From the NCBI GenBank assembly GCA_024137785.1, contig JAHRHZ010000264.1, positions 28,295,907 to 28,359,906 on the forward strand: DNA of 64,000 nucleotides, given 5' to 3'. Source of the DNA: Ginglymostoma cirratum (lineage: Eukaryota). The notes beneath the pieces were generated by a model that searched no databases, was not told where the DNA came from, and was given only the letters and a program-made list of their open reading frames with translations. Position 1 is the first letter of the stretch, and each line of letters begins with the position of its first letter. This document shows positions 45,950-64,000 of the stretch, in pieces. Made by a program: the position numbers and the translations under genes.

Positions 45950-46289
45950 TCCCTTCTCTAGCCAACCGGAGGATGACGCAGGCACCAAGTAGGAAGGGGG
46001 GGGGGGAACAAAACAAATAACTAGACAAAAGAAACTTATTCAAAAACAGCTTCCAGTCTGTCTTTATTATGTAAGTGGAAAGGGAGTACAATTGGATATC
46101 TGTTGAGATGCATGCGTTTGAGAGCGAATGGTGAAGTTTGGAGATAACCCCTTGTCGTGCAACACCGGCGAATGCACTGGGGAGCCGCTGTGGTACAAAT
46201 ACAGGGCAGTCCAGCAGGAGCTGACACTGCGCTCACAAGCTCATTCTTAAACTGAACCTGTTGGGGAGCTGTCAGTAATCCGGACGAAC
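45950..46289 (+). promoter_or_regulatory. Putative promoter/5'UTR of the anoctamin gene
   Basis: Repeat-free, modestly CpG-enriched sequence upstream of the ATG; CRE-like TGACGCA near 45975. Confidence 0.35.
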
Positions 46290-46568
46290 ATGACGGAAAA
46301 TATCCCAGTTATCGACTATGTGTTACTCTATGAATGTGAGGACGGATGCAGTGATCCTTATGCTAAACAGAGGAAGGAATTTCTGAGAGCGGTGCAGAAC
46401 ACCGGGCTGCATTTAGAGTTCAATATATCCAGGGACGAGTGGGAGAAAGAAGCGCAGACTGGGCGGAAAATAGCCAGAGACAAGTATCGAATTGTTAAAA
46501 TCTATGCTCCGTTTGAGCTCTTAAGCCAAACAGCTGAGAGGATGAGATTGAAGATGCCTTTGGCAGGG
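46290..46568 (+). CDS. Anoctamin/TMEM16-family protein, coding exon 1 (93 aa)
   Basis: aacATGA start with upstream in-frame TAA (46248-46250); IDYVLLY and VKIYAPFELLSQTAERMRLKMPL are anoctamin N-terminal motifs; donor GTAAAG, phase 0. Confidence 0.88.
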
Positions 46569-46762
46569 GTAAAGTTACACTGACTTTTTTTTAATTTCGT
46601 GAAATATTTGCTGCAGTAGACAAGAAGTATTCAATGTAAACCTGTCTCCAGATTTAAATTATTTTTAATTGCTAGGACCGTGCTCTGGTTTTTGCAATTC
46701 CCGCTCGTTAGAAACGTGCCCTTCTGTGCTCTTGTTGAACAAATATATAAAGCTTGAGGCTG

Positions 46763-46840
46763 TATCGGAGATAACAGGAACTGCAGATGCTGGAGAATCC
46801 GAGGTAACAAGGTGTAGAGCTGGATGCACACCTTGTTATC
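46763..46840. mobile_element. Very short PLE family B fold-back insertion
   Basis: taacaaggtgt...acaccttgtta inverted arms; TSD aaagcttgaggctg (46749-46762, 46841-46854). Confidence 0.75.
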
Positions 46841-48829
46841 AAAGCTTGAGGCTGAGCTGCTGCTAAATTGCAAAGCTTTTAATTCAAGTATTCTTCATCA
46901 TTTGGGGTTTGTTACATATTTCGCCCCGTTTTAACTGAGTTAAAACCAGTCTCGTGGAGATAGTCAAATGTAAATTAGTGACCAATTATATTGCATGGAA
47001 CAAAAGCTACAATTCAGAATTATTCCGCGGATCAGGCAGCATCTGTGGGGAGAGAAACAAAGTTAACATTTCAAGTCGGCGACCTCTTGACCTTTTTTGA
47101 TCATTTCTCATCAGTTATGGTTAATCTGAAGCTACAGTCCTGTTTCAGTCTCCAGTACTGCCTGACCCTGTTTTGTAAGAGGTTCTGCTTTTATCATCGA
47201 TATTGACATGCTGTTTTATTACCTTTCGACACACTAAATAACCCAACTTTTCAGTTGGGAATGTTCCTTCAACGTGGAAGCATCCGATTAGGGAATTGAC
47301 TGACTGAAATAATTTTGAATGTATACTGAAATGGAATCCCAGTGTTACCGATGTAAATATGACAAAAAGAGAGTTGCGTTGATATAATGTGCTGTGCTTT
47401 TAATTAATGCCTCAAAGCCCTTCACAGGCAATTAAGTACTTTTTAAGTGTACTTAAGTTGTAATGTTGAGAATGAAACAACTATTTGTTTACAACAAACT
47501 CCCACACAATTGATGATGGGTTGTTGGACTCCATGTCTGCTTTCTTCCCACAAGCCACCAGGCATGTTGAGTTTCTCCAGTAATTTCTGTTTCTGACCTA
47601 CATATCTGTTTTGTGATTTTTAAAAAGAGAAATATCGCCCAACCCGAGGGAGAATTCTCCCATCTTCAAAATAGTGCTATGAGATCATTGTGCCCACTTA
47701 AGCAAATGGTATCTTGTTTTTGGCTGCCATGTCTAAACGAGAGCATTTTTCAATGATGGCACTTTCTCAGAAATGCACAGTTGAGTCAAACTTGATTTTT
47801 GCATCAGGGCCCTGATGAAAGGCTTGAAGTTTGGAACTTTAATTTGGAGGAAAGAACCAACTGAGGCCTTGTGCTACAAGTGAAATGAAAATTCTCTTTG
47901 ATTTACTACTTTTACTGCAAACCTTCTGGTCAAATAGATATTCAACTTATTTATCATGCAAGACACTTTTAGGATGAATTTTGCATCGAGTGGCTCTTCA
48001 TTGAACTCCTGGATGTGGCAAGGTATGCATCTTATTCTGCAATAGTTAGTGGTGCAAAATAGATGAAGCTACCTGTCTCATCAAAAGAAAATTGGTTTGC
48101 TTTAACAACAAAAAGCACTGAGTAAACTGGCACAAGGTACAATTTCTGAAATGTTTCCTGAGAAAATAGACAATTAAGTCTGAGTAAAAATAAACTTTCA
48201 AAATTAAAGTGCTCTAATTACTAAATCGCAACACAGCCTGGGAGAGGGATTAACCACTTCAGCATTCTGATCTCTTGTGGCTAGAGGTGTTTCAGTAATC
48301 TAGTGACCCTGATCTATAACTTGGCAGCCCACCAACTCTCTTCGGTTGCAGACATGCTTGGATTTAGTTTTTTATAAAAGAAAGGATTATTTGATCAATT
48401 GTTTGTGCCAGCCCTAAGTGTGTCATTCAGGAGGCTGTCTAAAGTGCAGGTTTTGCATCTATTGAACCTTCAATCTGCTCGAAGCAATGTCTTGTTTTGA
48501 GAAGAGCTGGTTTGGCAGCAGACTATGTATGTTTGATTGCGAACAAAAGAATGTTAAAGTGCTCGGAATTAGCTACATTGCTATGCTTTCTTCCTCTGTA
48601 GCTCTGTATTTTCTACTGTTTAGAAGTATCTTTAAAAGTAACAGTATTCTTTGCCTCAACTACTTCCTGTGCCAAACTACTCCCACGCACCCACCCCCCT
48701 CCCGCCCCATGTGGGAACCTTGTGAAATCGTTATAAATTCATCACATGAGGATATTCCTGAACACTTTTTTTTTTGTTTGCAAAAATTCTCAATTTCAGT
48801 TATGGTCTCCTCACTATGGGAAATATGAT

Positions 48830-49330
48830 GTTAAGCTTAAAAGGGTTCAGAAAAGATTTACAAAGATGTTGCCAGGCTTGGAGTGTTTGAGACTCAGACT
48901 ATTCAGCCTCTCCCCATAGCTATTTCCTCCCTCCATGTCAGAGGCTGAGGTGTGACCTTTTTTATAGAAGCTAATAAAATCATGAGGGGCATGGATAGGG
49001 TGAACAGCCAAGGCCTTTTCCCTAGGGTAGGGGAGGCCAAAACTAGAGGGTATAGGTTTACGGTGAGAGGAGAAAGATTTAAAAGGGACCTGAGGGGCTG
49101 TCTCTTTCTTGCAGAGGGTGGTGTGTTCATATGGAATGAGCTGCCAGAGGAAGTGGTGGAGGCAGGTACAATTCAACACTTTAAAAGGCTTTTGGATGGG
49201 TATGTGAACAGGAAGGGTTTAGAGAGATATGGGTCAGATGCTGGAAAATGGGACTAGATTAATTTAGTATCTGGTCAGCATGAACAAGTTGGACCGAAGG
49301 GTCTGTTTCTGTGCTATACAACTCTTGACT
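48830..49330 (+). mobile_element. CR1/HER1 3' end
   Basis: KIMRGMDRVNSQGLFPRVGEAKTRGYRF.VRGERFKRDLRG..WNELPEEVVEAGTI; tail ggaccgaagggtctgtttc. Confidence 0.9.
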
Positions 49331-50352
49331 CTAAATAATCCACCCGCATTTTGGTCCAAGTGCAACAAATTTTTTAAACCTTATCTTAGTTTCCTGTTGA
49401 CTGTTCATGAATTTAGTAATTTTAGACACATTCAGTTTATGAAAAACAATGGGAGTAAACATTTTCTTAAGTTTATTGGGGAAATTGTAGGTGGTGTGCC
49501 TGTATATCTGTTGTCTTTTGTCCTTGAAATGGCTTTGGGTTTGGAAGGTGCTGTCTAAGGAGCTTTGAATTTCTGCAGTGCATCTTTTGTAGATGGTATA
49601 CATGGCTGGTACTGGGTGCCTGTGGTGCAGGGAGTGAATGTGGTGCCTATCAAGTGGACCGCTTTTGTTCTGGGTGGTGTCAAGTTTCTTGTGGTGTTGG
49701 AACTGCATCATGCACACATCCAAGCAAGTGGGGAGTACTCGATTGCACTGCTGACTTGTGCCTTGTGGATGGCCAACAGGACTTGGAGAGTCGGAAGGTG
49801 AGTTACTTACTGCAGTATTCCTTGCCTAGGACCTGCTTGACGTCTGTTAAGCTGCCCATGGATTTTAACATGGAAGGAAATATGCCTCCTTGGATTCTGT
49901 AATGGATAGGTCTGAGTAATTTTCCTCCACATCTCCCAAGACAAGGAATGGCCCCACCTCTCCATTTTCATGCTTGATATGGGCTTGGGGATTGGACTCG
50001 CTGTTTTTCTGAATCGTATCTTCTGCATAATGGGTCATACATCTTCTTTAAGACTTTAGCAACAAATTCTGGTCAGAATTATGTGGACTTCTGTGGAAAT
50101 CAAGAGGAAGTGAACTGCTTGGGAAAGGTCTGTCAGTCTGTCTTGAATTCTTGGTAAAGTAGATTTTTGTGCTACTTTTTTTTTTGTTTCTAAGTGAAAC
50201 AAAAGTAGTGCAGAATCTACTTCTTTTTAGTGTCTCAAAAGACAATGACCACAGTCTCTTTTGCTCCTCTTTATAAAAACTGCCAAAGGATATACCTCTC
50301 AGATTGCCAATCCTGATATAGCTAATGGGTAATTGTTCTGTTTTGTTCCAAG

Positions 50353-50520
50353 GGTGTCGATGTGAAATTGCCTGGGCGCTTTCAGAGGTTCATGGCTCGT
50401 TTTGCAACTGAGGTCGTAGTCAACTTTATCAGTGCACACTATGAACACAACAAAAGGCATCTGTTCCGAGGATTTGAAAATGAGGAAACATTTTTTCGCC
50501 CTGCCCTGAGATCTCTAATT
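50353..50520 (+). CDS. Anoctamin-family exon 2 (168 bp)
   Basis: AAG|GVDVKLPGRFQRFMARFATEVVVNFISAHYEHNKRHLFRGFENEETFFRPALRSLI|GTAAAT; TFF-x3-RS-x-I motif. Confidence 0.88.
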
Positions 50521-51421
50521 GTAAATGCAGAATTCTGTTATGATACATTCTTAATTTTTAGGATTACCTTTCGGAATAGTTATGTTGTCTATTTAATCTT
50601 AATCTTCTACCAAATGTATGCTGTATTAATCAAACCACAAATGCAATGAACATCTCTCAAACCAGACAGTCCCCATTAATTGGAGTGATGGATATAACTT
50701 CAAATTGGCCAGAGAGGCAATTTGGAGTATCCAAATACTAATACTTGGGTTTGCAGATCTGACTATTCATTCAAAACTGTTAACATTTATATTTGTGTAA
50801 CAAATTTGTTAGTTGTTTTGAACAAAACAACTATGAATCAAACCATTTTGTTAAACTCATTTGCCACATAAAAATAAGAAAACATTAGTGTCTTGTAGAT
50901 TTGGTTGGGGGGGGGGGGTGTAACGAAAGCATGGGCTTTCGGTCCTTTTAATAACCCTATGTAGCATACGTTTGGACAGTCTGTCTCTACAGCTCAAAAC
51001 TACACAGGATTCAGATTGTTCATTCAAATTACAACACGGGCTTTTTAACAAGCTGTGATATGGAGTACAAATGAATTTAAATTTGAAGTGTGAACCTTGG
51101 GATGTGGCAAAGAGAGCAGTGGAAACATTTGAGGCACAAGGTGGCAAAGGTGTGAGTGAGCATTCTGTAGTAATGGTACTAAGATTAGGAATAGATTCAC
51201 TTTATAATGTTGTGGAAATAACAACATTAGTTTTGTGTATACTTTCCACAAGAATTTGTTTGTGCATGTGTATATTGCTGTATTACCACTTAGCTGTAAT
51301 CCATTGCCATAGATCCCTTACAAGATTGGTGTTAAATGAAACAAATTTTCAGATAGAAAGTAACATAAAGGAGGATGTTCTAAAGTAACTCTTATTCTGT
51401 TTTTATTTTTTTGTTTTGAAG

Positions 51422-51476
51422 GTTCATTACATCCTCACAAACATAGCTATAGACGTTAAGACTGCTGATACAGAAG
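51422..51476 (+). CDS. Anoctamin-family exon 3 (55 bp)
   Basis: Strong T-tract, AAG|VHYILTNIAIDVKTADTE-|GTAACT; completes the RSLIVHYIL motif; phase 0/1. Confidence 0.85.
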
Positions 51477-52957
51477 GTAACTTTTTTAGCTTTGGCAAAC
51501 GGTTGTTACCTGTGTTCTTTAAATCTTTGTTTAGAACAGAAAGTGTCATAAATATAATTTGAAAAACTTAGCCCCTTGACTTTTGTGCCATAATTATGGT
51601 TATAATCTAAACCTTTTAGAGATGGCTAACACTTCATTAAGAATGAGGAAATGTTTGTGAAACTCATGTCAGTGATTGCACATAATCAGCACTCTTGGCT
51701 CTGAACTGAAATGGGTTGAATTTCTGTTGCAGCAACAGCTGTGTTTCAGGATTGCTTAGTTCAATGAGTACAACCTGTTCATTATTAATAGCTGCAGGGA
51801 TGTGCTACATCAGTAGGTCAGTCATGTTTTTGGGCCCTTTTTCCTGATTAGGTGTGTAGGTAGTCTATATGTTGTCATTGTTGAATTATCGGTATAGTTA
51901 GCAAAGTTTTATTTAGAAGTGTTTCAGCATAGGAGGTCATCATCAAATTTATGTAATGCTGGCTGTTGATGATTTGTTCTACCTCCCACACCTTTTTCTT
52001 GTCCCTGCAATATTTGCTAAATGCCCTTTTAAAGCTACCTTTTTAAAATCAATTTTCTTTGCTTTTTGGGTAGTGAATTCCAAATCCTAATGACTTATCA
52101 CATGAAGGGTTTTTTCTTCCATCAGTATTGATTATCAATTGCCTTGAATCAGTGACCCTGGTTGCTTATGGGCCAACAGTATTGGAAACATTGTCTTTAT
52201 TCTGTAGAGACCCTTCATGATTTGGAACATCTATTAAATCTCTTTTCCTTTCTCGAAAGGAAACTGAAAGCAATTCCCATGTTGTTTGCACAATGTTTCA
52301 TTTGGTGTAGCTATTCCACAGTGCTGTGGGAAGTGGAGTTCTGACTTTCTGATCCAGCAGCAGGTTTTTTTAAATAGTGATTTATGGTTCCAAGTCAGGG
52401 TCCTGTTCCTCTGAGGCACTTGCCGGTCAGGTGATTGGGTTCCCAAGCAGTATCCCAGAATGGCTTACTACTTCAGTCTTTATTTATCCATGTGGAGCTC
52501 CATTGTTGTATTAGGTGTTTGGTCAACTCTATTTTGATGGACAAAATGGACACCACCCAGAATACTTTTCCATAAGGGATGGAGTCTCCACAATGTGGAA
52601 ACAGCCTGTTCAGCTCAACGAGCCCACACTGAGCGTCAGAGCATTCAAGCTAGATCCATCTCTCCTCTTCCGCCTCCATCTCTATAGCCCTGCACTTCGT
52701 GTGGTTGGTGCACCTAACCTACACATCCCTGAAAACTATGGGTAATTTAACATGGCCAATTGGAAGTAAACCCACATAAATAGTTACCTAAAAGTGGAAC
52801 TGAACCCATGTCCCTGGTGCTGTGAGGCAGCAGTGTTAACTGCTGAGCTGCAACATCATTCTTTTCTTCCACGTTTTCATTGAGGTATAGGAAAAGTATA
52901 TTAATTTTGAACCTTCATCCTCTCTGTCCAATTCAAATAAGATTATTGTGGTTACTT

Positions 52958-54189
52958 GTGATAACAAGGTGTAGAGCTGGATGAACACAAGCCAAGCAGC
53001 ATCAGAGGAGCGGGAAAGCTGACGTTTCAGGCCTAGACCCTTCTTCAGGAAGGGGGTTCTGAAATAGGGAGAGAAGGGGAGGTGAATAGAAGATGGATGG
53101 AGAGGAGACAGACAGGTCAAAGAGGCGGGATTGGAGCCAGTAAATGTGAGTGTAGATGGGGAGTTAGGGAGGACGGACAAGTCAAGGGGATGGGATGAGG
53201 CTAGGAGGTGGGGCTTTAGGTGGGAGGAAGGACAAGTTAGGGAGGCGGGGACAAGCTGGGCTGGTTTTGGGATGCTATAGTGGGAGGGGAGATTGTGAAG
53301 TCCACATTGATACCATTGGGCTGCAGGGTTCCCAAGCAGAATGAGGTGCTGTTCCTGCAACCTTCGGGTGGCATCGTTGTGGCACCGCTGGAGGCCCAGG
53401 ATGGATATGTTGTCTGAGGAATGGGAGGGGGGAGTTGAAATGGCTCACGACTGGGAGGTGCAGTTGTTTAGTGCAAACCAAGCGTAGGTGTTCCACAAAG
53501 CCATCCCCAAGCCTCTGCTTAGTTTCCCCGATGTAGTGGAGGCCACAGTGGGAACAGCGGATACAGTATACCACATTAGCAGGAGTGCAGGTGAACATCT
53601 GTTTGATGTGGAAGATCTTCTTGGGGCCTGGGATGGAGGTGAGGTGGGAGGTGTAGCACTTCCTGCAGTTGCAAGGAAAAGTGCTGGGTGTGGTGGGGCT
53701 GGAGGGGAGTGTGGAGCGGACAAGGGAGTCCCGGAGAGAATGGTCCCTCCGGAAAGTAGATAAGGGTGGGGAACGAAAAATGTCTTTGGGGTCGGATTGC
53801 AGATGGAGGAAGTGTCGGAGGATGATGCGTTGGATCCGCAGGTTGGTGTGGTACATGAGGACGAGGGGGATTCTGTTTTGGTGGTTATTGCGGGGAGGGG
53901 GTGTGAGGGATGAGTTGTGGGAAATGCGGGAGACACTGTCGACCACTGAGTTGGGGGGTGGAATTTGTGGTCCTCAAAATGAGCACATCTGAGATGTTTG
54001 GGAGTGGAAAGCCTCATCCTGGGAGCAGGTGTGGCAGAGGCGTTTTTTCTTGTTTTTGCAAGAAGGTGGGTGGGAGGAGGTGTATTCTAGGTAGCTGTGG
54101 GAGACGGCAGGCTTGAAATGGATATCCGTTTCCAGGTGGTTGCTGGAGATGGAAACAGAGGTCCAGGAAGGAGAGAGAAGTATCAGAGA
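52958..54189 (-). mobile_element. Penelope-like element (Neptune-type, family B), 5'-truncated
   Basis: RIPLVLMYH..IQRIILRHFLHLQSDP..FTCTPANVVYCIRCSHCGLHYIGETKQRLGDGFVEH; flanking repeat tggttactt (52949-52957, 54190-54198). Confidence 0.9.
53017..53050 (-). ncRNA. Hammerhead motif in PLE family B terminus
   Basis: Minus strand CUGAAGA-A-GGGUC(UA)GGCCU-GAAA-CGUC; helix I weak. Confidence 0.6.
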
Positions 54190-54379
54190 TGGTTACTTAA
54201 TCTATTGCATCCTAACCTTTATTTTAGGATTTGCTTTGCATTGCCTCATGAACACACTCGCCTTGGGTAATCGCTTCAACTAATTCCTAAATTCAGTTAT
54301 TTTTGAACACATCACTTCAATGTATGCATTATTTTAAAGGCAGGCTTAAAAGTTTGGTTTCCCCCCAGGGCCACTTAGC

Positions 54380-55550
54380 TCCTGTCCTCATTACAGCCGT
54401 AGTTCAAACATGGATAAAAGAACTAAATTCCAGAAGTGAGGTGAAAGTGATGTCCAAGGAGCCCTAGCAAAACGGGAATGGATGGGTATCAGGGGACAAA
54501 CTCTCTGATGGCTAGTCATAACCTGACGACACAGGAAGATGGTTGGGGTTGTTGGAGGTTAATCAGCTCAGCTCCAGGACATCTCTGCAGGAGTTGCTCG
54601 GGGTAGCATCCTCAGCTCAACAATCTTCAGCTGCTTCATCAATGACCTTCCCTCCATTATAAAGTCAGAAGTGGGGATGTTCACCGATTGATGGCACAAT
54701 GTTCAGCACCACTTGCAACTCTTCAGATACTGAAGCAGTCTGTGTCCAAGTGCAACAAGATCTGGACAATATCCAGGCTTGGGCTGACAAGCAGCAAATG
54801 ACATTCGTGCCACAAATGCTAGGCTATGACCATCACCAATAAGAGACAATCTAACCACCACCCCTTGACATTCAACGGTGTTGCCATCACTGAATTCCCC
54901 ACAATCAATATCCTGGGGGCTACCAATAGCCAGAAACTCAACTGGACTCTCCACATAAACACAGTGGCTACACAACAGGTCAAATGCTAGGAATACTGTG
55001 GAGAGTAACTCACCTCCTCACTCCTCAAAGCCTGTCCACCATCTACAACGCAATTATCAGAAGTGTGATGGCAAAGTCCCCATTTGCCTGGATCAGTGCA
55101 GCCCCAACAACACTCAAGAAGCTTGACACCATCCTGGACAAAGCAGCCCACTTGATTGGCACTGCATTCACTCCTCCACCACCAACACTCAGTAGCAGTG
55201 GACTATCTACAACAGGCACTGCAGAAATTCACCAAAGCTCCTCAAATCGCACCTTCCAAACCCACAACCACTTCCATCTAGAAGGACAAGAACATTAGAC
55301 ATATAGGAATACCACCTTCAAGTTTCCCTCCAAGACACTCACCATCCTGACTTGGAAATATATTGCCATTCCTTCACTGTCACTGGGTCAAAATCCTGGA
55401 ATTCCCTCCCCGTTGGCAATGTGAGTCAACCCACAGCAGGTAGACTGCAGCGGTTCAAGAGGGCAGCTTGCTGTCACCTTAAGGGCAACTGGGAATGGGC
55501 AAGAAATGCTGGCTGGCCAGCCAGCAACTCCCGCATCTCTCAATGAATGG
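54380..55550 (+). mobile_element. CR1-group (Crack/L2-like) LINE, 3' part of RT and 3' end
   Basis: LGILWRVTHLLTPQSLSTIY..IRSVM..SPFAWISAAPTTLKKLDTILDKAAHLIG. Confidence 0.85.
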
Positions 55551-56200
55551 GGGGGGGGGGGGGGGCCCAAGAAAAGTAGAAGTAGGCCAATCAGCCTATC
55601 GAGTCTGTTCTGCCACTCAATAAGGTCATGGCTGAGTCTGTCTCCCCCTTCACTTGCCCTCCCTCCCCCTCATGCTGGACATTGCCATTTAGATCTATTA
55701 CCAACATCACCATCACCTACTTGCAAATCTTTGATCTATGGCTTATACCTGGTATTTGCTACAGCTTGGCATCTCTCTCAAACTTAACTTTTGCATAAAT
55801 GTGTTTCAATAAACGTCACCTGGTCCAGGAACTTGCATGGGAAATGTAAATCCTATATTGCAAAGTTGCTGAATTATAAAGCAATGCATTAGCAGATATA
55901 TTCCAATCCTTTCCACCTGATAGGAAGCCTCTTCTCCTAGGAATGTGTATTGGGCAGTCGACATTCAGATTTTTAAAAATTGTCAACTATGACAATGGTG
56001 GCAGCTAATAGGCACATAGAGGAAGGAAGATCTGAAGTGAGGGTCATTTCAACACGAGTAACCAGTGACTCTGCCTCATCTAGAGAATCTTAGATACATT
56101 ACCAAACTTAGTGGAGAAGGTGCAATGTTGAAAGCAAGAATGTGTAATGTAAATAAACTTGCTGTTGATGAACCATGGATTTTTTTTTAAACTGAAATAG

Positions 56201-56359
56201 TTTCTCGTCTTGGAGTAACAACACGCAAGGTTAGAGGAAAGATTCCAGCTCTGCCATACTTGGTTATGAAGAAGGCGTTTAAATCTGCTTTTATACTGCA
56301 TGACTTGAAAACATGCCAATCTGATGTAGATTCTAGCCAATCATCACCTCGAGACAGGG
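56201..56359 (+). CDS. Anoctamin-family exon 4 (159 bp)
   Basis: TAG|(V)SRLGVTTRKVRGKIPALPYLVMKKAFKSAFILHDLKTCQSDVDSSQSSPRDR-|GTGAGT; AFxLHD motif; phase 1/1; not in the supplied ORF list. Confidence 0.85.
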
Positions 56360-57689
56360 GTGAGTAGAAATCCTGTTCAGTGTGAATACCAGATATTTTA
56401 ACTTAATAGGTGTTCACATTTCTTAAGTAATACCAGAAGGCTTTGAAAACACTCATCACTAATAAGTGATGAGAGAAGCAGAGTTAATGTTTTGGGTCTG
56501 TTGACTTTTTTAAAAATTAAATTAAAGCTGCTGACATACACTGGAGTTCAGATCTGTAGTTGAGTATGTGGCCGGTCACGCCTGCTCCACTAAAGACGAT
56601 CATGGCTGATATCAGGGCTTCAGCTCAAATTCCTGCTCCTTTTTCATGTCCCCGACAGAGCAAAAATGTGTCCAGCCAAGCCTTAAATGTATTCAGTGGT
56701 CCAGCATCCACAACTCTCTGGGGTAGAGAATTCCACAAGTTTGCAACCCTTTTGAGTGAAGTAATTTCTCTGTCCTAAATGACCAACTGTATACCCAGTC
56801 AGGCCCCTTGTATGTCTTTGAGACCATTTCCTGTTCTTCAAAGTATCAGAGAATATAGGCCCAATTTACTCAGCCGTTCATTGTGGGACAGCCTCTTCAT
56901 ATAGGGGCCAGTTTTGATGAAGGGTCATTGGACCTGAAATGTTGGCTCTGCTTTCTCTCTATTGATGCTGCCAGATCTGCTGAGTTTCTCCAGCAACTTT
57001 TGTTGTAGTTTTGGATTTCAAGCATCCACAGTTCTTGGTTTTATTTTCAAGGTGATGTTGAAATTGTATATGACGTTTTGTAGATCTCAGGAGTATTGTG
57101 GCACCTAAACTATACAAATTACAGGAAATACTTGAATGTGTTGGAGAGAGTGAAGTAATTCACAGGATTGGTTCCAGGAATGAGAAACTCCAGTTATGTG
57201 GATAGCAACATACATCACCTCACTTCTCTGCAGTGAATCTCGACTGTCATCTATCTACCCACTCCAAGTTGTAAATGTCATACTTCCATGTTTTTATCAT
57301 ATGCCACATAAAACACTAGTTTTGGCGTAAAATTCACAAGAAAGAGAATTAACTTCTGCAAACAAAGCAGTACTGCAGTACAAAATGCATGTCCTTAGAA
57401 AATTTGCAGTTAGAGAATCGATTCTAATTTCAAAAGATGAAGATTTTTGTTTCAAGCTACTTTTTTTTGAGGGGAAAAAACACAAAACGAGCAAACTGTT
57501 GGGATTCTGGGATTTTGAAGTTTATGGGAAAAATCAGGAAGTCACTAAACAGGGTAGAGAATCTGTACCTTTCCACTTAACTCTAACATCAATATACTGA
57601 AGAAATTAATCTGTAGGGAGGACACCAGTTGCACAAGAGATTCTAGATTTGTTTTTAATGGTGTGGGCAACAGGATAGTTATTGGAGTG

Positions 57690-58125
57690 AACTGTGTAAA
57701 ATATTGAAAGTGGGGCTGTTCTTCTTGGAACGAAAAGCTGAGAGGAGATTTCAGGTTTTCCAAGTAAAGAGTGGGTTGGATAGAGTAGATAGAAAGAATC
57801 TGTTCCTGGCTGTAAAAGGAACAAGATTGAGAAGGCATAAATTTAAATTTGTGCATGTGAAGCAAGGAGTTGAGGGGGAAATGCTTTTTCCCTCACAGCA
57901 AGTAGTAAGGGCATGGAATGCACAACGGGAAATGTGGTGGAGGCAGCTTTGATTTCAAGCATTCAAGAGGGCATTAGATTATTTAGAATTAGTTTGCAAG
58001 GATATGGTTTGGGGGGGCGGGGAGGGCAGTGCCAGGGGACTAAGATTGGCACAAGGTAATGTTTGTTTGGAGAGTAGGGTCAGGGATGGCAGACAGAATG
58101 GTATCCTTCTGCACTGAAGCAATTC
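57690..58125 (+). mobile_element. CR1 3' end fragment
   Basis: GLDRVDRKNLF..TRLRRHKFK..SQQVVRAWNA. Confidence 0.75.
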
Positions 58126-58407
58126 TGAGTTGGTTTCCTAGCTGACCATCAAATCTCTGCATTATTAAAGTCCTCCAGCCAGGTCAGCCTTCTCTCCATA
58201 TCCTTTCATTAGTCATGCAACTCTCAATATGATGTATTGTCTCCCTTCATCCTAGGGAGGTTTTTTCATGGTTTGAATATATTTTCAAAAGGATGTCCAA
58301 ATTCTAGCACATGACTTCAGGTTAAGTCTTTCAACATTCTGCATTATTACAAGTTCCCTTTAGCTTTCTAGTCTCACTAGTTGTGACAGCCAGAATCTCG
58401 TTCATCT

Positions 58408-58520
58408 AAGATAACAAGGTGTGGGGCTGGATGAACACAGCAGGCCAAGCAGCATCATAGGAGCAGGAAAGCTTGATGTTTCGGGCCTAGACCCTTCATC
58501 AGAAAACTTTTATCTCTCTC
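58408..58520 (-). mobile_element. Short PLE family B terminal insertion with hammerhead motif (58472-58507)
   Basis: Minus strand CUGAUGA-A-GGGUC(UA)GGCCC-GAAA-CAUC; TSD atctcgttcatct (58395-58407, 58521-58533). Confidence 0.8.
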
Positions 58521-60321
58521 ATCTCGTTCATCTGTCTGTTATGTTACTTCTCATTGTATTCCCTGCTTCGTTAACTGACGGCTTCTCCGTTTTTAGACTG
58601 CTTTCCTAGTAACTATTAAAAGTGTGGAAAAAGCTCTATTTTTCACTTCAGAAAATTTGCTACCTCTGCATCTTTAAGCTCACCCAGAAGCCAAGTTACA
58701 GAATATCAATTGACATGTTTTGAGAGTGCAGACCACTTTCAAGTTTGTTAACTACTGTCTGCATGACTGAAGCATAGTTGCCTTTTTAAACCCATCCCTT
58801 GCAGTCTTGTGTGGACTACAAATTTGATATTGCTCCAGATTGTACTGCAATCAACTCTCTCTCTGCTTACTGAATCCATAACCAAAAAGATCATTTTGTG
58901 CCACTGAGCAGTGGTTATCATCCAAAAGTACCGAATGGGAAACTACCAAAAAAAAAATCTGATGTTAGAAACAAACCTGAAACAACTGCATCTTTGGAGA
59001 GATGGAATGAAACACTTTACAGTGCTTTTCAGTCACTTGAAAACAGAACACTCATGGAAGGAAGAGGCACTCAGTAAATATTTGGTGTGTGAAGCCTGTT
59101 AAGTGATTCCTGTGTGCGCTCTGCAACAATCAGCAATATTAACCTTCAGATGTGTATATAAAAGTCTGCTTGTGGTTCAAATCCGCATCCCCTGCCCTAC
59201 CCCACACTTATTTGTAACTGTATTTCTCCCCCCCCCCCCCCCAACCTGTTTTATGGTTGTCTTATCTGGTCTCTGATTTTGGAATGGGTGCAGAGGAGGG
59301 AATGCACTCCCCTACATCATTTGAGCAGGTTTTTCTTCTCTCTCTCAATAGTAGATAAGAGATCAGGAAATGTTTAGCATTCACACAGCAATTGGAAAAA
59401 CCATTCTCTCAGCTGCCATTGTTTATCCTGACATTTTTAACTTTGTTACCCCATGTGGAGGTATTCCTTCTGTCAGCTGAGCACTTTAATGAGCCTTGCT
59501 GAGATGAGGAGCTCAATATCTGAAGAATCACCTTGAGTACCACTTTCCTTATCAACACCATCCATTATTACAGCATTTGTTATACTGCAAGCCATGTTGT
59601 ATCCAATGGCTCTTCACAATTGTTATCAACAATTTTTTTTTTTCTTTTACAAAGCTGTATGCATGAGAATATTTAAAGGTAACTGTTTAAAAGAATAGCT
59701 CTTTTTAATTTTGGGTGGTGCTGTCCAGACTATCATTTCTTATCCCTAATTGCCCTTCATGGTGGTGAGCTGAAGTAATGGTGTGCGGTTTGGAGAGGAA
59801 TGGGCATGTGGTTGTATTCCCATGAAATTTTCTTTGTCCTTTTGAGAGGGATGAGGTTGTGGGTTTGGGAAGTTGTCAGTGGAGCCTTGGTGAGTTGTTG
59901 CAGTGGCACACTACTGCCACGGTGTTGATGGTGAAGGAGGTGAATGTTGAAAGTGACTGGAATGGCGATCCAGTGGATGTCCAGTTCCTTGTGTTGGAAC
60001 TGCACCTATCCAAGCAAAGGGAGAATATTCCATCGCACCCTGATTTTATCTTTTTATGCCCTGCTGACAGGCTTTTGGAGTGACAGAAGGTGAGTGGCTC
60101 ACCATGGAATTGCAAGCTTTCTACCTGCAGTTTTGGCCACAGTATGCATAGCTGGTCCGGTTGAGCCTCTGGTCAGTGGTAACTCCCAGAACTTTGAGTA
60201 TGATAATGCCATTGAATGTTAAGGGGTAACGATTAGATTCTCTCAACAGCAGTTCATTATTGCTCCAACAATGATCGTGTTTGTCTGCATCTGAAGTTCT
60301 AATGTACCTGACTTTCTACAG

Positions 60322-60535
60322 GTGGCACCAAATCAACCACTCCTACGAATGAATGGACAATGCTTAATGACTTGTGGGCAAACACCTATCTGAAATTCCA
60401 GCCCCTTTGGAAAATACGAAATTACTTTGGTGAAAAAATTGCACTTTATTTTGCTGTGATGGAAACACTTCTAATTAGTCTCATTATCCCTGTGTTCCTT
60501 GGCTTGGGTGTTTTCGTTTATGGTCTTTATTGCAG
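60322..60535 (+). CDS. Anoctamin-family exon 5 (pre-TM1 motif and TM1)
   Basis: CAG|(G)GTKSTTPTNEWTMLNDLWANTYLKFQPLWKIRNYFGEKIALYFAVMETLLISLIIPVFLGLGVFVYGLYC-|GTATAT; hallmark QPLxxIRxYFGEKIALYF; phase 1/2. Confidence 0.93.
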
Positions 60536-62107
60536 GTATATATTTTTTTTCTCAATTACTTTTCAGCAGAATGTGATTTATGTTTTGGTGAACTTTATAT
60601 GCTTGAATGGTATAATATGGTGGTACAATTTGTAGTTTCCAGATCACCACTCCCCAAACATCACAGCTCAGAATAAATAGCAGTGTTTGCTGGATGACAA
60701 CTTTGAGGTGTTTTGACATCCTACTGGAATATTCCACAAGGTGGAATGACAGACTTGTAACAGTCAATTATCCTAATAGTGAGAGCTTAATTTATCACCT
60801 TAGGGGAGAGGTGGTGAGCTCAGGCTAGTTGCTTATTTATTGGATACACCTGATATGTTCAGAATTATCATATTGCTTAATTTACAACTACAGCAAAATT
60901 CTGCCTAAAGAACAGAGTTTTCCTCCATAACACAGACCCAGCTGTGTGAATGAACATAGCTGCAGGAAAGTCCATTCTCCTTCTGCAGTATTGTACAGCC
61001 TTCCCCCTTAATATTGTGCATGAGGTGAAATGACAATGGGATAGTTGTCACTTAGGGTATGTGATGCTTGTGAATCAATATGGACCCTCTTCGTGGAAGG
61101 TATAGTAAATGCTCATTCCACCCCGTAAGACCTAAATTTGCTTATAGGAAAGGATATTAGCCAGTACAAAGAAAGCTCAAGAGTCTTGTGGCTGATGTAT
61201 TCTTAAAGGACTGTGCCAGATTATTTTAGAATTGCTCCTACAGTTCATTCTCCCACCTAAGCCTCAGCAACTATTTACGTGCACAGTCTTAAAATTATGA
61301 ATCACACCCTCAAAATAAGTGACTGACCATTTAGGGCTGAGATAACAATACACTACTGAAGGTACTTGTTCTCTTGGAATTCTTTACCTGTAGCACTATG
61401 TAAATGGTCAGCTGTTGGTTTATACTACAACCGGTTGATTTTTAAGATTTTGGGATATGAGGGAAATTGAGAGATGTGTGGACAGTCACGGGTAGGAATG
61501 TGTTTTCTGAGGCATAAGTTGAGTCATGCCCTTACAAATTGTGCAGAGACAAAGTGGTTAACTTCTGCTGCTCGTTCTTGTCACTGAGTAGCCATACCTT
61601 TTCAAGCGTCACTAGTATAAAACCTATGCACATTATTTTGTACGGATCAATTTTGAAGTTTGGGTGCACATTGTAAACAATTGTTGGCAATAAAGAAAGC
61701 TTTCTTTCCATTACCTCAAATGTGGGGTGAAACCTTCAGAAACCTTTTTTAACTATAATGAAGATGTTTAAATAGTCTCTTCATAATTAACCTCACCCCC
61801 GCCACCAATAGTTCACAGTTGCAATGCATCTTAAGTTGGTTTGTAAGTCTCAATTTTTGAGTTTGAGCTTTACATTCCTAAAGTCCAGATCCTGATCATG
61901 CATTTTGCTTTAAAATATATTTGCAGATTATCTCCTTTTCAAAATCTTCTAGTCCAATCATTAAACATTGCCCTATTGGAAATGCTTTCAGGTGAGGCAT
62001 TAAACAAAAGTCCCATTCGCTGTCTTGAGCGGGTTCAAAAGACAGCATTGGCACCATCTCAAGGAGTTCTCCCTGATGTTCTGGCCAATACTTTATCCTT
62101 GAATGAG

Positions 62108-62194
62108 ATAGCAAGGTGTAGAGCTGGATGAACACAGCAGGCCAGGCAGCATCCGAGGAGCAGGAAAGCTGCCGTGTTGGGTCTGGACCCTTCT
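62108..62194 (-). mobile_element. Short PLE family B terminal insertion
   Basis: Perfect 16-bp TSD tttatccttgaatgag (62092-62107, 62195-62210). Confidence 0.8.
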
Positions 62195-62244
62195 TTTATC
62201 CTTGAATGAGCCTTATTGAAACCAGTGTTGCTTAAACCAATTAT

Positions 62245-62430
62245 AAGCAAAAATAAAAACTGCTGGAGAAGCTTTGCAGCTCTGGCAGAAGTTCTGAAGA
62301 AGGGCCCCTGGACCTGAAATTTTAACTCTGCTTTCTCTCTCTTCACAGATGATGCTACACCTGCTGAGTTTATCCAGCAGTTTCTGTTTCTGTTTCAGAT
62401 TTTCAGTATCCAGTTCTTTGGTTTATTTTG
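62245..62430 (+). mobile_element. PLE family A-like terminal insertion with degenerate hammerhead
   Basis: gttctgaagaagggcccctggacctgaaa...ttcacagatg..ctgctgagtt..ccagca; related copies at 32521-32660, 42860-43000 and 56910-57045. Confidence 0.7.
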
Positions 62431-63455
62431 ATGCTTTAAACCAGTTATTTGGCTATTATTGCATTGTTGTTTTGAGAGCCTAGCCGTGTGGAAATTGGTT
62501 GCGTGTTTCAGGTATAACAGTGACCATATTTCAAGCCCATCGCTTGAGATTTAGGTAACGTAGGTCCTCACTTTAAAGTTGTGGTTGCTTTCCTGAAAAT
62601 CGTGACTTTAAGTAAAAATTGGTTCCCATAGAACAAAATTGTTAAACCTGTAGTTAGATTCTGTGTAGGATCTTGTTTCTGAAGGAAAAGAACATATAAA
62701 ACATTTTGCCCTATAAGTTGTAAATATTTCAAAATCCTTATTGGTAATAAATCTTTAAATTTGAAGATACAATCAAAAACTAACTTGCTGCATACAGTGC
62801 AAATATGCATTTCTTGCTGGTAATCCTGCTTATCAAAGCACCTGCCCCCTAACACTTCTAGTTGTTACTGAGTTGTGGGCTGTACACCATACCCCTCTCC
62901 CTGACCCATTCTCTTGACACTTGCTTATTTGGACTTGCACTCCTATTTAAGATTCAGCTCCAAAAAAGCTGCAGCTTTTGAATTAGAAGTGGTCAGACTC
63001 TTTGTGATGTGTTTTTTTTTTAAAAGAAGTGCTGTCTCCTTTCCTGAATCCGTATGGCAAGTGAGGACTTTAGAGAAGAGCAGTATTGAAAGCTAATTTT
63101 ACAACAAAACTTGGATTATAGAATCCTCAGCAGTCCTAGCATATTGGCACACTCCCACAACACCAGAGCTCCAGCTTCACATTAAATCTGGGTCTTTATT
63201 GGGAACACCAGTCAAAGAGAAGGAAGTAGCATGTTGGGGAGGGGGTGGAATGCTGCAACATGGCAGTCCAGGATTAGAGGTGGTGCCAATCAGATCTCAG
63301 GAAATTTTGTTATGAGAAATCTCTTATGCTTAACAAGATTACAGCCTTTGTTAATTTACCAACCTCAAACTGAAACAATGTTATATGGGGCAGCTTTAAA
63401 TGAGGACTTAGGATTCCTTTTTCTGTCTTAATATAATTCTTCTTATCCTTTTCAG

Positions 63456-63578
63456 TATATCTTGTTACAATGCCAGCAATGACCTTGATGAGATTTTGCG
63501 TGGACATAATTTCAACAATATCTGTTTGTCTTCAAACTTGATCGCCGAAGTGGTAGACACAGCTGTGGATAGAATTCG
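63456..63578 (+). CDS. Anoctamin-family exon 6 (TM1-TM2 extracellular loop); gene continues beyond the right edge
   Basis: Pyrimidine tract, CAG|(S)ISCYNASNDLDEILRGHNFNNICLSSNLIAEVVDTAVDRI-R|GTAACT; open in the phase-2 frame required by exon 5. Confidence 0.72.
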
Positions 63579-64000
63579 GTAACTATTCACCATGACTTTT
63601 TGAGATACGTTTATGTTTAAATACTGCAAGTGTTTCTGATCCACTTAACTTGAATAAATATTGGTATATTATTGTTTACTTATACACCTGAGTCTTTACA
63701 CAAGTTTGCTGCAAATTTTAAGGTATCGCACTCTTACAGGTGATACTTCTTATTTTATTTGTTTGTTATGTGCTGTGGAAAATTTTGCAATGCTAATGAA
63801 TAATTGTTGAGTAAATGGTATTGTCACTTTAGATTATGTCATGTGTTCAAAAGTAGGTGTTTGATGGAAGATTTTTGGTTAATTTCAGCTCCTCTGTCTG
63901 CATAAACTTCTTATCCTGTCACCACCATATTCAAGTGCCTTTTGAGTGAAGAGTCTTTCTTCCCTTAGAAAATCATTTGAGATATTATCACTTGGTGTTT

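Follow-up and report, generated by a model that had tools for sequence, protein, structure and literature searches.

Ten anoctamin (TMEM16) paralogs have been stated for vertebrates (Milenkovic et al. 2010, PMC2974728). Yuan, Zhu and Kadowaki 2022 (bioRxiv 10.1101/2022.04.22.489151; Yuan et al. below) describe in their main text a further subfamily, TMEM16L (ANO11), which has both Pfam domains, occurs in ctenophores, molluscs, flatworms, chelicerates and nematodes, is absent in insects and is said to have been lost in vertebrates, the vertebrate sample being human and zebrafish. Himmel et al. (eLife 2023, PMC9904763) named ANO11 as an anoctamin clade of its own that predates the bilaterians and whose function is not known; its likeness to the clade treated here is one of description. 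In the nurse shark Ginglymostoma cirratum, a 64,000-nucleotide stretch of contig JAHRHZ010000264.1 (C264:28295907-28359906, hereafter the window), which was examined together with the next 200 kb, contains the first six coding exons of an anoctamin gene, gene A. Judged from its sequence, this gene is very probably a vertebrate member of the TMEM16L/ANO11 family, outside ANO1-10.

Functional information comes from the nematode protein ANOH-1 of C. elegans, which promotes phosphatidylserine exposure on necrotic neurons and is needed for fast Ca2+-independent, chloride-dependent touch currents that require K588, CIB and ankyrin (PMC11830769, PMC4464654). These papers, in the parts consulted, call ANOH-1 a homolog of ANO1 or of TMEM16F, whereas the tree discussed below would make it the ortholog of neither. 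The initial annotation, prepared from the letters of the window, had proposed an ancient anoctamin subfamily uncharacterised in vertebrates. Its age and its place outside ANO1-10 hold; the subfamily has most likely been described and named already, as TMEM16L/ANO11, and is little studied, one member (ANOH-1) probably being among those studied, and it is the vertebrate member that is new. Taken as a whole, the reading favoured here, to which we give somewhat better than even chances, is that of a shark gene, intact and spliced, for an anoctamin that lies outside ANO1-10, likely belongs to TMEM16L/ANO11 and would scramble lipid and pass chloride under weakened Ca2+ control.

Position among the anoctamins and range of the clade

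In the trees gene A falls, as initially proposed, in a clade of its own with invertebrate proteins, which takes up 22 of the 47 rows under LG+G4 (support 100/100) and 16 of the 32 rows under LG+C20, nematode and choanoflagellate included (support 100/99). Nesting inside ANO7 or ANO9, named at the outset as one of the results that would speak against the proposal, did not occur, and approximately unbiased (AU) tests on 22 rows rejected the union of the vertebrate members with ANO7 (p 2.3e-6) and with ANO9 (p 6.4e-5); unions with other ANO clades, which lay outside these tests, appear in none of the trees. The canonical rows were taken from the genome's own loci because the representative search returned few canonical vertebrate anoctamins; several of these rows contain less than half of the alignment positions, and the trees were rooted with the ANO10-like loci. 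Gene A is 44-46% identical to proteins of Lingula, Ptychodera and Acropora and 35% identical to that of Caenorhabditis, as against 26-36% for 20 canonical rows. The vertebrate members follow the species tree, with ray-finned and cartilaginous fishes separated at 100/100 before the split of the cartilaginous proteins into types A and B, and a chimaera protein leaning weakly to B (82/32).

Other assignments were considered and rejected. For ANO8/ANO10, the corresponding loci on contigs C52, C85, C86 and C43 form a group apart from gene A, a separation that is read from an unrooted split because C52, C85 and C86 were the outgroup in the main trees. For ANO1/2, gene A has His at the K588/Q559 site, Phe at the hinge and no extra residue in transmembrane segment (TM) 6, and it lies in a separate clade. 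ANO7 (TMEM16G) has its domain layout in common with gene A, at about 30% identity; it differs in its clade and loci, in the intron positions around TM1, and in its canonical Gly hinge and Asn ligand.

The clade corresponds to TMEM16L/ANO11 in taxonomic range: it includes ctenophore, cnidarian, mollusc, flatworm, chelicerate and nematode proteins, and the insect rows (Tribolium, Drosophila and Cacopsylla) lie outside. The main text of Yuan et al. reports for TMEM16L the lack of a TM6 glycine, a Met at the hinge site of the anemone protein and a linked Biomphalaria pair. In the clade described here, the TM6 hinge Gly is found in 0 of 103 rows, compared with 18 of the 24 canonical rows that have a residue at this site; Met occupies the hinge in the Acropora, Desmophyllum, Dendronephthya, Nematostella and Rhopilema rows; and two Biomphalaria genes lie on one chromosome, with accessions two apart. 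A Centruroides protein also belongs to the clade. The two Pfam domains, the five acidic Ca2+ ligands and the tendency to tandem duplication are further points of likeness. The other subfamilies of Yuan et al. are M, mostly without the dimer domain and with no molluscs, N, which is cnidarian, and O, which is ecdysozoan; by these descriptions L is the only one that fits the range of the shark clade. The difference lies in the vertebrates, from which the paper has TMEM16L lost, and in which it is found here in sharks, rays, a chimaera, bichirs, paddlefish and sturgeons. The TM6 Pro-Lys pair and the loss of two Asn ligands, described below, are also absent from the main text of Yuan et al.

The link to ANOH-1 is provided by the C. 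remanei protein EFO94383.1, a member of the clade from an unnamed Caenorhabditis cluster. It has Lys588 at the TM6 site, its arginines 610 and 617 equal R607 and R614 of ANOH-1 after a three-residue insertion, and its N-terminus is 19 residues longer, as in ANOH-1b. Because these details match, C. elegans ANOH-1 very likely belongs to the same clade. The Caenorhabditis proteins that match its numbering have the TM6 signature and the pore lysine of the clade and are about 35% identical to gene A; at the selectivity site they have Gln, as opposed to His in gene A.

Used as query, the TM region of the orthologous whale-shark protein gave 602 matches, of which the best 120 were examined. Elasmobranchs, reedfish and paddlefish (55-56%) were followed by proteins of brachiopods, echinoderms, hemichordates, annelids, molluscs, flatworms, scorpions and cnidarians (42-51%), and there was no named teleost or tetrapod among these best 120 of the 602. 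Cluster look-ups added bichir, sterlet, beluga sturgeon, chimaera, tick, octopus, leech, sea spider, Nematostella, Caenorhabditis, a choanoflagellate and an ichthyosporean; the trees also place ctenophore proteins in the clade. A search with a profile of vertebrate members added the Chinese sturgeon, after which scores fell from more than 400 bits to named ANO7, ANO1 and ANO9 proteins of teleosts, lungfish, amphibians, reptiles, birds and platypus; this is weak evidence of absence, because the search was word-limited and missed 3 of its own 10 input rows. In an exhaustive search of 50% clusters, no unnamed representative shorter than 1300 aa joined the vertebrate branch (two longer ones were left out), and a member sharing 50% or more with the shark or paddlefish protein would have gone unseen within the cluster of that protein. 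The ESM Atlas gave only generic 'Anoctamin' clusters. Taken together, these incomplete searches revealed no member among teleosts, lobe-finned vertebrates or amphioxus, and loss in teleosts and tetrapods is likely. The proposed retention in cartilaginous fishes is borne out by sharks, rays and chimaera, but it is too narrow, given the bichirs, reedfish, paddlefish and sturgeons; of the initially proposed matches to amphioxus, echinoderm and mollusc proteins, the latter two were recovered and no amphioxus appears among the named search rows. A choanoflagellate protein (P0205) and an ichthyosporean one (P0232) group with the clade, the latter on a long branch placed by FastTree only, and the clade may be older than animals.

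The clade proteins themselves are already public, under wrong automatic names. No paper placing a vertebrate in this clade was found in a search that left most subscription journals outside, and within the literature searched the term 'TMEM16L' occurs only in the preprint of Yuan et al. The vertebrate range of the clade overlaps, we presume, the fishes that have ampullary organs. For a role in electroreception, no anoctamin term occurs in the parts consulted of the supplements of PMC5429088 (paddlefish lateral line) or PMC13069148, a literature search combining all three terms gave no paper, and the incomplete searches found no clade member in lungfish or amphibians. The lamprey gill paper PMC11993260, in the part consulted, concerns ANO1 only.

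Structure and splicing of gene A and its tandem paralog

The six exons of the window (Table 1) were initially said to join in frame into about 330 aa. Acceptors (AG), donors (GT) and phases all fit, the product is 332 aa and stop-free, the IDYVL motif starts at residue 8 as claimed, and the three other motifs quoted were all found in the spliced peptide. This call is not due to chance, for 13 further exons past the window complete the frame: the gene has 19 exons, all intact and all with GT-AG introns. Two acceptors of exon 4, both in frame and 15 nt apart, are available. With the one at 56201, which is used in a contig of run X2, the protein has 809 aa; with that at 56216, which fits the piece lengths of a contig of run X6 and the whale-shark model, it has 804 aa. 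The trees and alignments used the 804-aa form, from which the 809-aa form differs by five loop residues, and 760 positions of the former are identical in whale-shark XP_048453821.1. The short N-terminus, to which the initial annotation had pointed, recurs in the elasmobranchs, where an IDYVL-type motif lies at residue 9-15 in 12 of the 12 checked; it does not mark the subfamily, as the motif lies at residue 20-121 in invertebrate members of the clade and at 25-30 in ANO9.

Splicing is documented by contigs of the public runs X2 and X6, the latter from a related organism. A 585-nt X2 contig matches exons 1, 2 and 4 without mismatch and skips the introns; exon 3 has no piece of its own in it, yet fits a 53-nt gap between the contig pieces. 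A 4577-nt X6 contig carries exons 1, 2 and 5. Three GT..AG joints among exons 10-13 are seen in both runs, and the joint of exons 13 and 14 is also in X6. As no run among the 10 is recorded as RNA, the contigs, which were compared with gene A, serve for splice joints only, not for tissue or level. The X2 match to 46229-46410, with zero mismatches, could by itself be DNA because it crosses no intron. An in-frame TAA lies upstream of the ATG. A Pfam scan gave no match for exons 4 and 6, exon 3 being outside the scan.

Gene B, a second and likewise intact gene of the same type, has the same orientation as gene A and begins 17,146 bases beyond the stop codon of the latter. The two proteins are 54% identical (426 of 782 aligned positions), and gene B has at least 15 of the 18 intron positions of gene A. 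Two exon searches of the genome gave genes A and B as the sole close loci. For 10 further sharks and rays, the contigs listed for the two types have the same length, which suggests that the genes share a chromosome. Two NCBI models of paralog B, P0014 (1034 aa) and P0020 (1026 aa), contain about 200 extra residues that partly match repeats scattered in the region and are probably retroelement pieces taken as exons.

Table 1. Coordinates of gene A and its tandem paralog. Positions without a prefix refer to the window, and those with the prefix C264 to the contig.
Feature	Position	Strand	Evidence or remark
5' untranslated region of gene A, first exon	46229..46289 (at least from 46229)	+	Run X2 contig and sequence
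Coding exon 1: start codon and first part of dimerisation domain	46290..46568	+	PF16178, E 2e-12; X2 contig
Exon 2, dimerisation domain	50353..50520	+	Splice sites and frame; Anoct_dimer match below cut-off; X2 contig
Exon 3, 55 nt	51422..51476	+	Splice sites and frame
Exon 4	56201..56359	+	Splice sites and frame; X2 contig spans 56199-56358
Exon 5: pre-TM1 signature and TM1	60322..60535	+	Anoctamin PF04547, E 1.8e-8; contig match
Exon 6: extracellular TM1-TM2 loop	63456..63578	+	Splice sites and frame
Start of intron 6; gene A continues past the window edge	63579..64000	+	
Gene A exons 7-19, TM2-TM10 and stop	C264:28362306-28401674	+	Outside the window
Gene B, tandem paralog, about 22 exons, about 850 aa	C264:28418820-28489336	+	Model without stop, approximate at the 3' end

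Upstream of gene A, in positions 1-46200, the 150 longest of 1530 open frames gave no Pfam match, a scan that could miss short exons of a neighbouring gene; hence no neighbour gene or synteny is established. Many of these frames have what we take to be the look of decayed retroelements.

Residue pattern, proposed mechanism and alternatives

Both TMEM16 domains, PF04547 and PF16178, are found on the exons of gene A and on the whale-shark ortholog P0001, for which a structure model was obtained (predicted local distance difference test score, pLDDT, 89.4; predicted template modelling score, pTM, 0.89). The best fold match of the model (Foldseek E 1.6e-27) is TMEM16F (PDB 6QP6 and 6QPB), with Z 32.7 and a root-mean-square deviation of 3.4 over 616 aligned residues; TMEM16A lies about one Z lower. 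TM6 of gene A aligns without gaps to that of TMEM16F and lacks the extra residue of TMEM16A. TMEM16F (ANO6) belongs to a different subfamily, and gene A resembles it in fold, TM6 register, pore lysine and the positions of the five acidic ligands. It departs from it at G615, N620, N621, F518, Y563 and Q559, where gene A has Phe, Lys, Val, Val, Ser and His, respectively, and at E624 and E699, where the clade has Asp for Glu. Residue roles follow TMEM16F numbering and the consulted parts of two reviews (PMC8835819, PMC8640346).

The five acidic Ca2+ ligands of TM6-TM8 are kept (D612, E663, E666, D695 and D699 in the 809-aa model), each in 15 of 15 paralog-A rows. The N620 site, in contrast, is Lys or Arg in all 103 clade rows as against 0 of 23 canonical rows, and is Lys608 in gene A; Asn at the N621 site is found in 0 of the 103 compared with 21 of 23, the site being nearly always hydrophobic (Val609 in gene A); and the residue before the N620 site is Pro in 99 of 103 (P607). 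One further row with a gap at the TM6 site was left out of these counts. Small residues occupy F518 and Y563, two of the three inner-gate sites, as V508 and S553. At Q559, the selectivity site, His occurs in 15 of 15 paralog-A rows, Gln and Glu in seven paralog-B rows each, and mostly Gln (59 of 69) in invertebrate and protist rows. The pore lysine (K588 of ANOH-1, K645 of ANO1), which is K604 in gene A, is kept in 15 of 15 A rows and 4 of 14 B rows; gene B of the nurse shark has Glu at the selectivity site and His replacing the pore lysine. The ligand corresponding to E670 is gone in 5 of 14 B rows, from four named rays and one unnamed. In the ray proteins P0016, P0018, P0019, P0025 and P0026, the loss of this TM7 ligand is accompanied by Glu in place of the pore lysine, and their Ca2+ binding may be further reduced.

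From this pattern the following mechanism can be proposed, which, once the family assignment is granted, we regard as fairly likely. The ten-helix membrane protein would form a plasma-membrane homodimer, as in other TMEM16 proteins, and its TM3-TM7 groove would serve both phospholipid scrambling and the passage of chloride. Ca2+ likely still binds, because the five acidic ligands are kept. With Lys608 and Val609 in place of N620 and N621, the lysine would likely take over part of the bound charge; the contacts with Ca2+ would then be fewer or weaker, and the gate less dependent on it. With the glycine hinge absent, TM6 would bend at P607. The small residues V508 and S553 may favour an open, lipid-passing groove; according to the two reviews, alanine at the gate residues of TMEM16F leads to constitutive activity. 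Chloride flow is likely because Lys604, the pore lysine needed by ANOH-1 currents, is kept. Genes A (His/Lys) and B (Glu/His) may differ in ion selectivity; Lys at the selectivity site is said by the same reviews to favour anions.

Several points count against this proposal. The pointing of Lys608 into the Ca2+ pocket is putative, and the counts over 103 rows express conservation rather than independent events, because the rows are related. Fungal scramblases also lack the glycine hinge, and their TM6 still moves on Ca2+ binding (PMC8835819, PMC8640346); Ser at the Y563 site also occurs in the channel-type ANO2 row. As to the name, the three Macrostomum accessions given by Yuan et al., who count five genes, match none of the five NCBI Macrostomum accessions found here; with their accessions and LOC numbers unmatched, TMEM16L is a name given here by range and features and not through a reference sequence common to both studies. 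The nematode branch is long (1.29), and orthology was read from C. remanei, not from C. elegans ANOH-1 itself. Furthermore, the touch defect of anoh-1 is rescued by human ANO1 and not by ANO6 (PMC11830769, PMC4464654); in that assay, this speaks for the role of a channel and not of a scramblase.

This last observation belongs to an alternative within the same family, namely a chloride channel only, force-opened through CIB and ankyrin as reported for ANOH-1 and with no real scrambling. The Ca2+-independent touch currents of ANOH-1 with their requirement for K588, and the equivalent of Lys604 in every paralog-A row together with His at the selectivity site, agree with it. We nevertheless consider it unlikely, since small residues occupy the F518/L547 gate site throughout the clade, the additional TM6 residue of TMEM16A is missing, phosphatidylserine exposure is promoted by ANOH-1 as well, the anemone TMEM16L model predicted by Yuan et al. 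has a wide TM4-TM6 inner gate (8.6 A), and the pore lysine is gone in 10 of the 14 paralog-B rows; the ANOH-1 authors themselves say that direct force gating is yet to be shown (PMC11830769, PMC4464654). An ordinary Ca2+-activated scramblase like TMEM16F or TMEM16K, with TM6 changes neutral for gating, would account for the conserved acidic ligands, which Yuan et al. take as a sign of Ca2+ activation, and for TMEM16F as the best fold match. It becomes rather improbable in view of the basic N620 site in all rows from ichthyosporean to shark, which together with the loss of N621 and the two changes from Glu to Asp points to a constrained, rebuilt site, and in view of the E670 ligand lost in part of the B rows. 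A bolder version of the favoured mechanism can be put forward only tentatively: in sharks, rays, chimaeras, bichirs and sturgeons, the clade members would represent an eleventh vertebrate type and the true ortholog of ANOH-1, in which the lysine replaces a Ca2+ ion, so that a force-gated chloride channel or scramblase would open with no rise in Ca2+; of the two elasmobranch copies, one would lean towards anions (His/Lys), and the other would be non-selective or lean towards cations (Glu or Gln, lysine often lost).

Two further alternatives concern the gene itself and are both highly improbable. A duplicate of ANO7, or of some other member of the ANO1-10 set, that evolved fast and was displaced by long branches would explain why NCBI names the clade proteins anoctamin-7-like, -4-like and -10-like and why the best profile hits outside the clade are mostly ANO7 proteins. 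However, the AU tests and the mixture-model tree reject it, no canonical row is as near to gene A as the proteins of mollusc, brachiopod and coral are, and true ANO7 is found at C4 and C114 of the same genome; the ANO7 and ANO9 versions can be taken as refuted on these sequence comparisons, and the label 'anoctamin-7-like' misleads, because both unions are rejected and the genome's own ANO7 and ANO9 lie elsewhere. A dying gene, with open exons in the window and broken or silent ones downstream, was also conceivable, and disrupted or unexpressed downstream exons had been named beforehand as a possible objection. As far as disruption is concerned, the exons past the window are intact and spliced: all 19 are whole, spliced contigs come from two organisms, one of them 4577 nt long, and full-length orthologs exist in many sharks and rays, so that this alternative is refuted at the level of frame and splicing.

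Other anoctamin loci and meaning of the clade

The nurse shark genome contains about 15 other anoctamin loci, and partial proteins were built for 12 of them. In the tree, those on C4 and C114 group with named ANO7, that at C62:43.1 Mb with ANO9 and that at C63:1.9 Mb with ANO1; the best PDB matches of the C20 and C52 proteins are ANO6 and ANO10. From tree position and motifs, we take the loci on C91, C21, C62:3.0 Mb and C43 to be ANO2, ANO4, ANO5 and ANO8, respectively. Of the two ANO7 loci, that on C4 (L046-L049) stands with shark and teleost ANO7 and that on C114 (L056-L060) with lungfish and mammal ANO7, a grouping by which teleost 'ANO7' and tetrapod 'ANO7' may be different paralogs. Two neighbouring anoctamin loci occupy C62:43.13-43.25 Mb and 43.37-43.42 Mb, the first grouping with ANO9. 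There are three ANO10-like loci, on C86, C52 and C85; the one at C86:11.02 Mb (L021:767-2665, minus strand) is an intronless open frame of 633 codons on a long branch, which looks like a retrocopy that stayed open. Finally, a lone TM1-like anoctamin exon with changed motifs (L037:4480-4809, C267:8.84 Mb), with no other exon within the 20 kb examined, is possibly a remnant.

The assignment of gene A changes the count of vertebrate anoctamins, with ten types in mammals and an eleventh surviving in cartilaginous and early ray-finned fishes, and contradicts the published statement that TMEM16L was lost in vertebrates. It also bears on what can be carried over to humans from ANOH-1, which has been taken as a model of human ANO1 or ANO6 and is suggested here to be the ortholog of neither. 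Furthermore, the clade offers natural TMEM16 proteins whose Ca2+ site is rebuilt and whose TM6 lacks a glycine hinge, which would allow direct tests of Ca2+-independent gating, and the tandem pair, whose members differ at the selectivity and pore residues, would allow direct tests of channel versus scramblase function.

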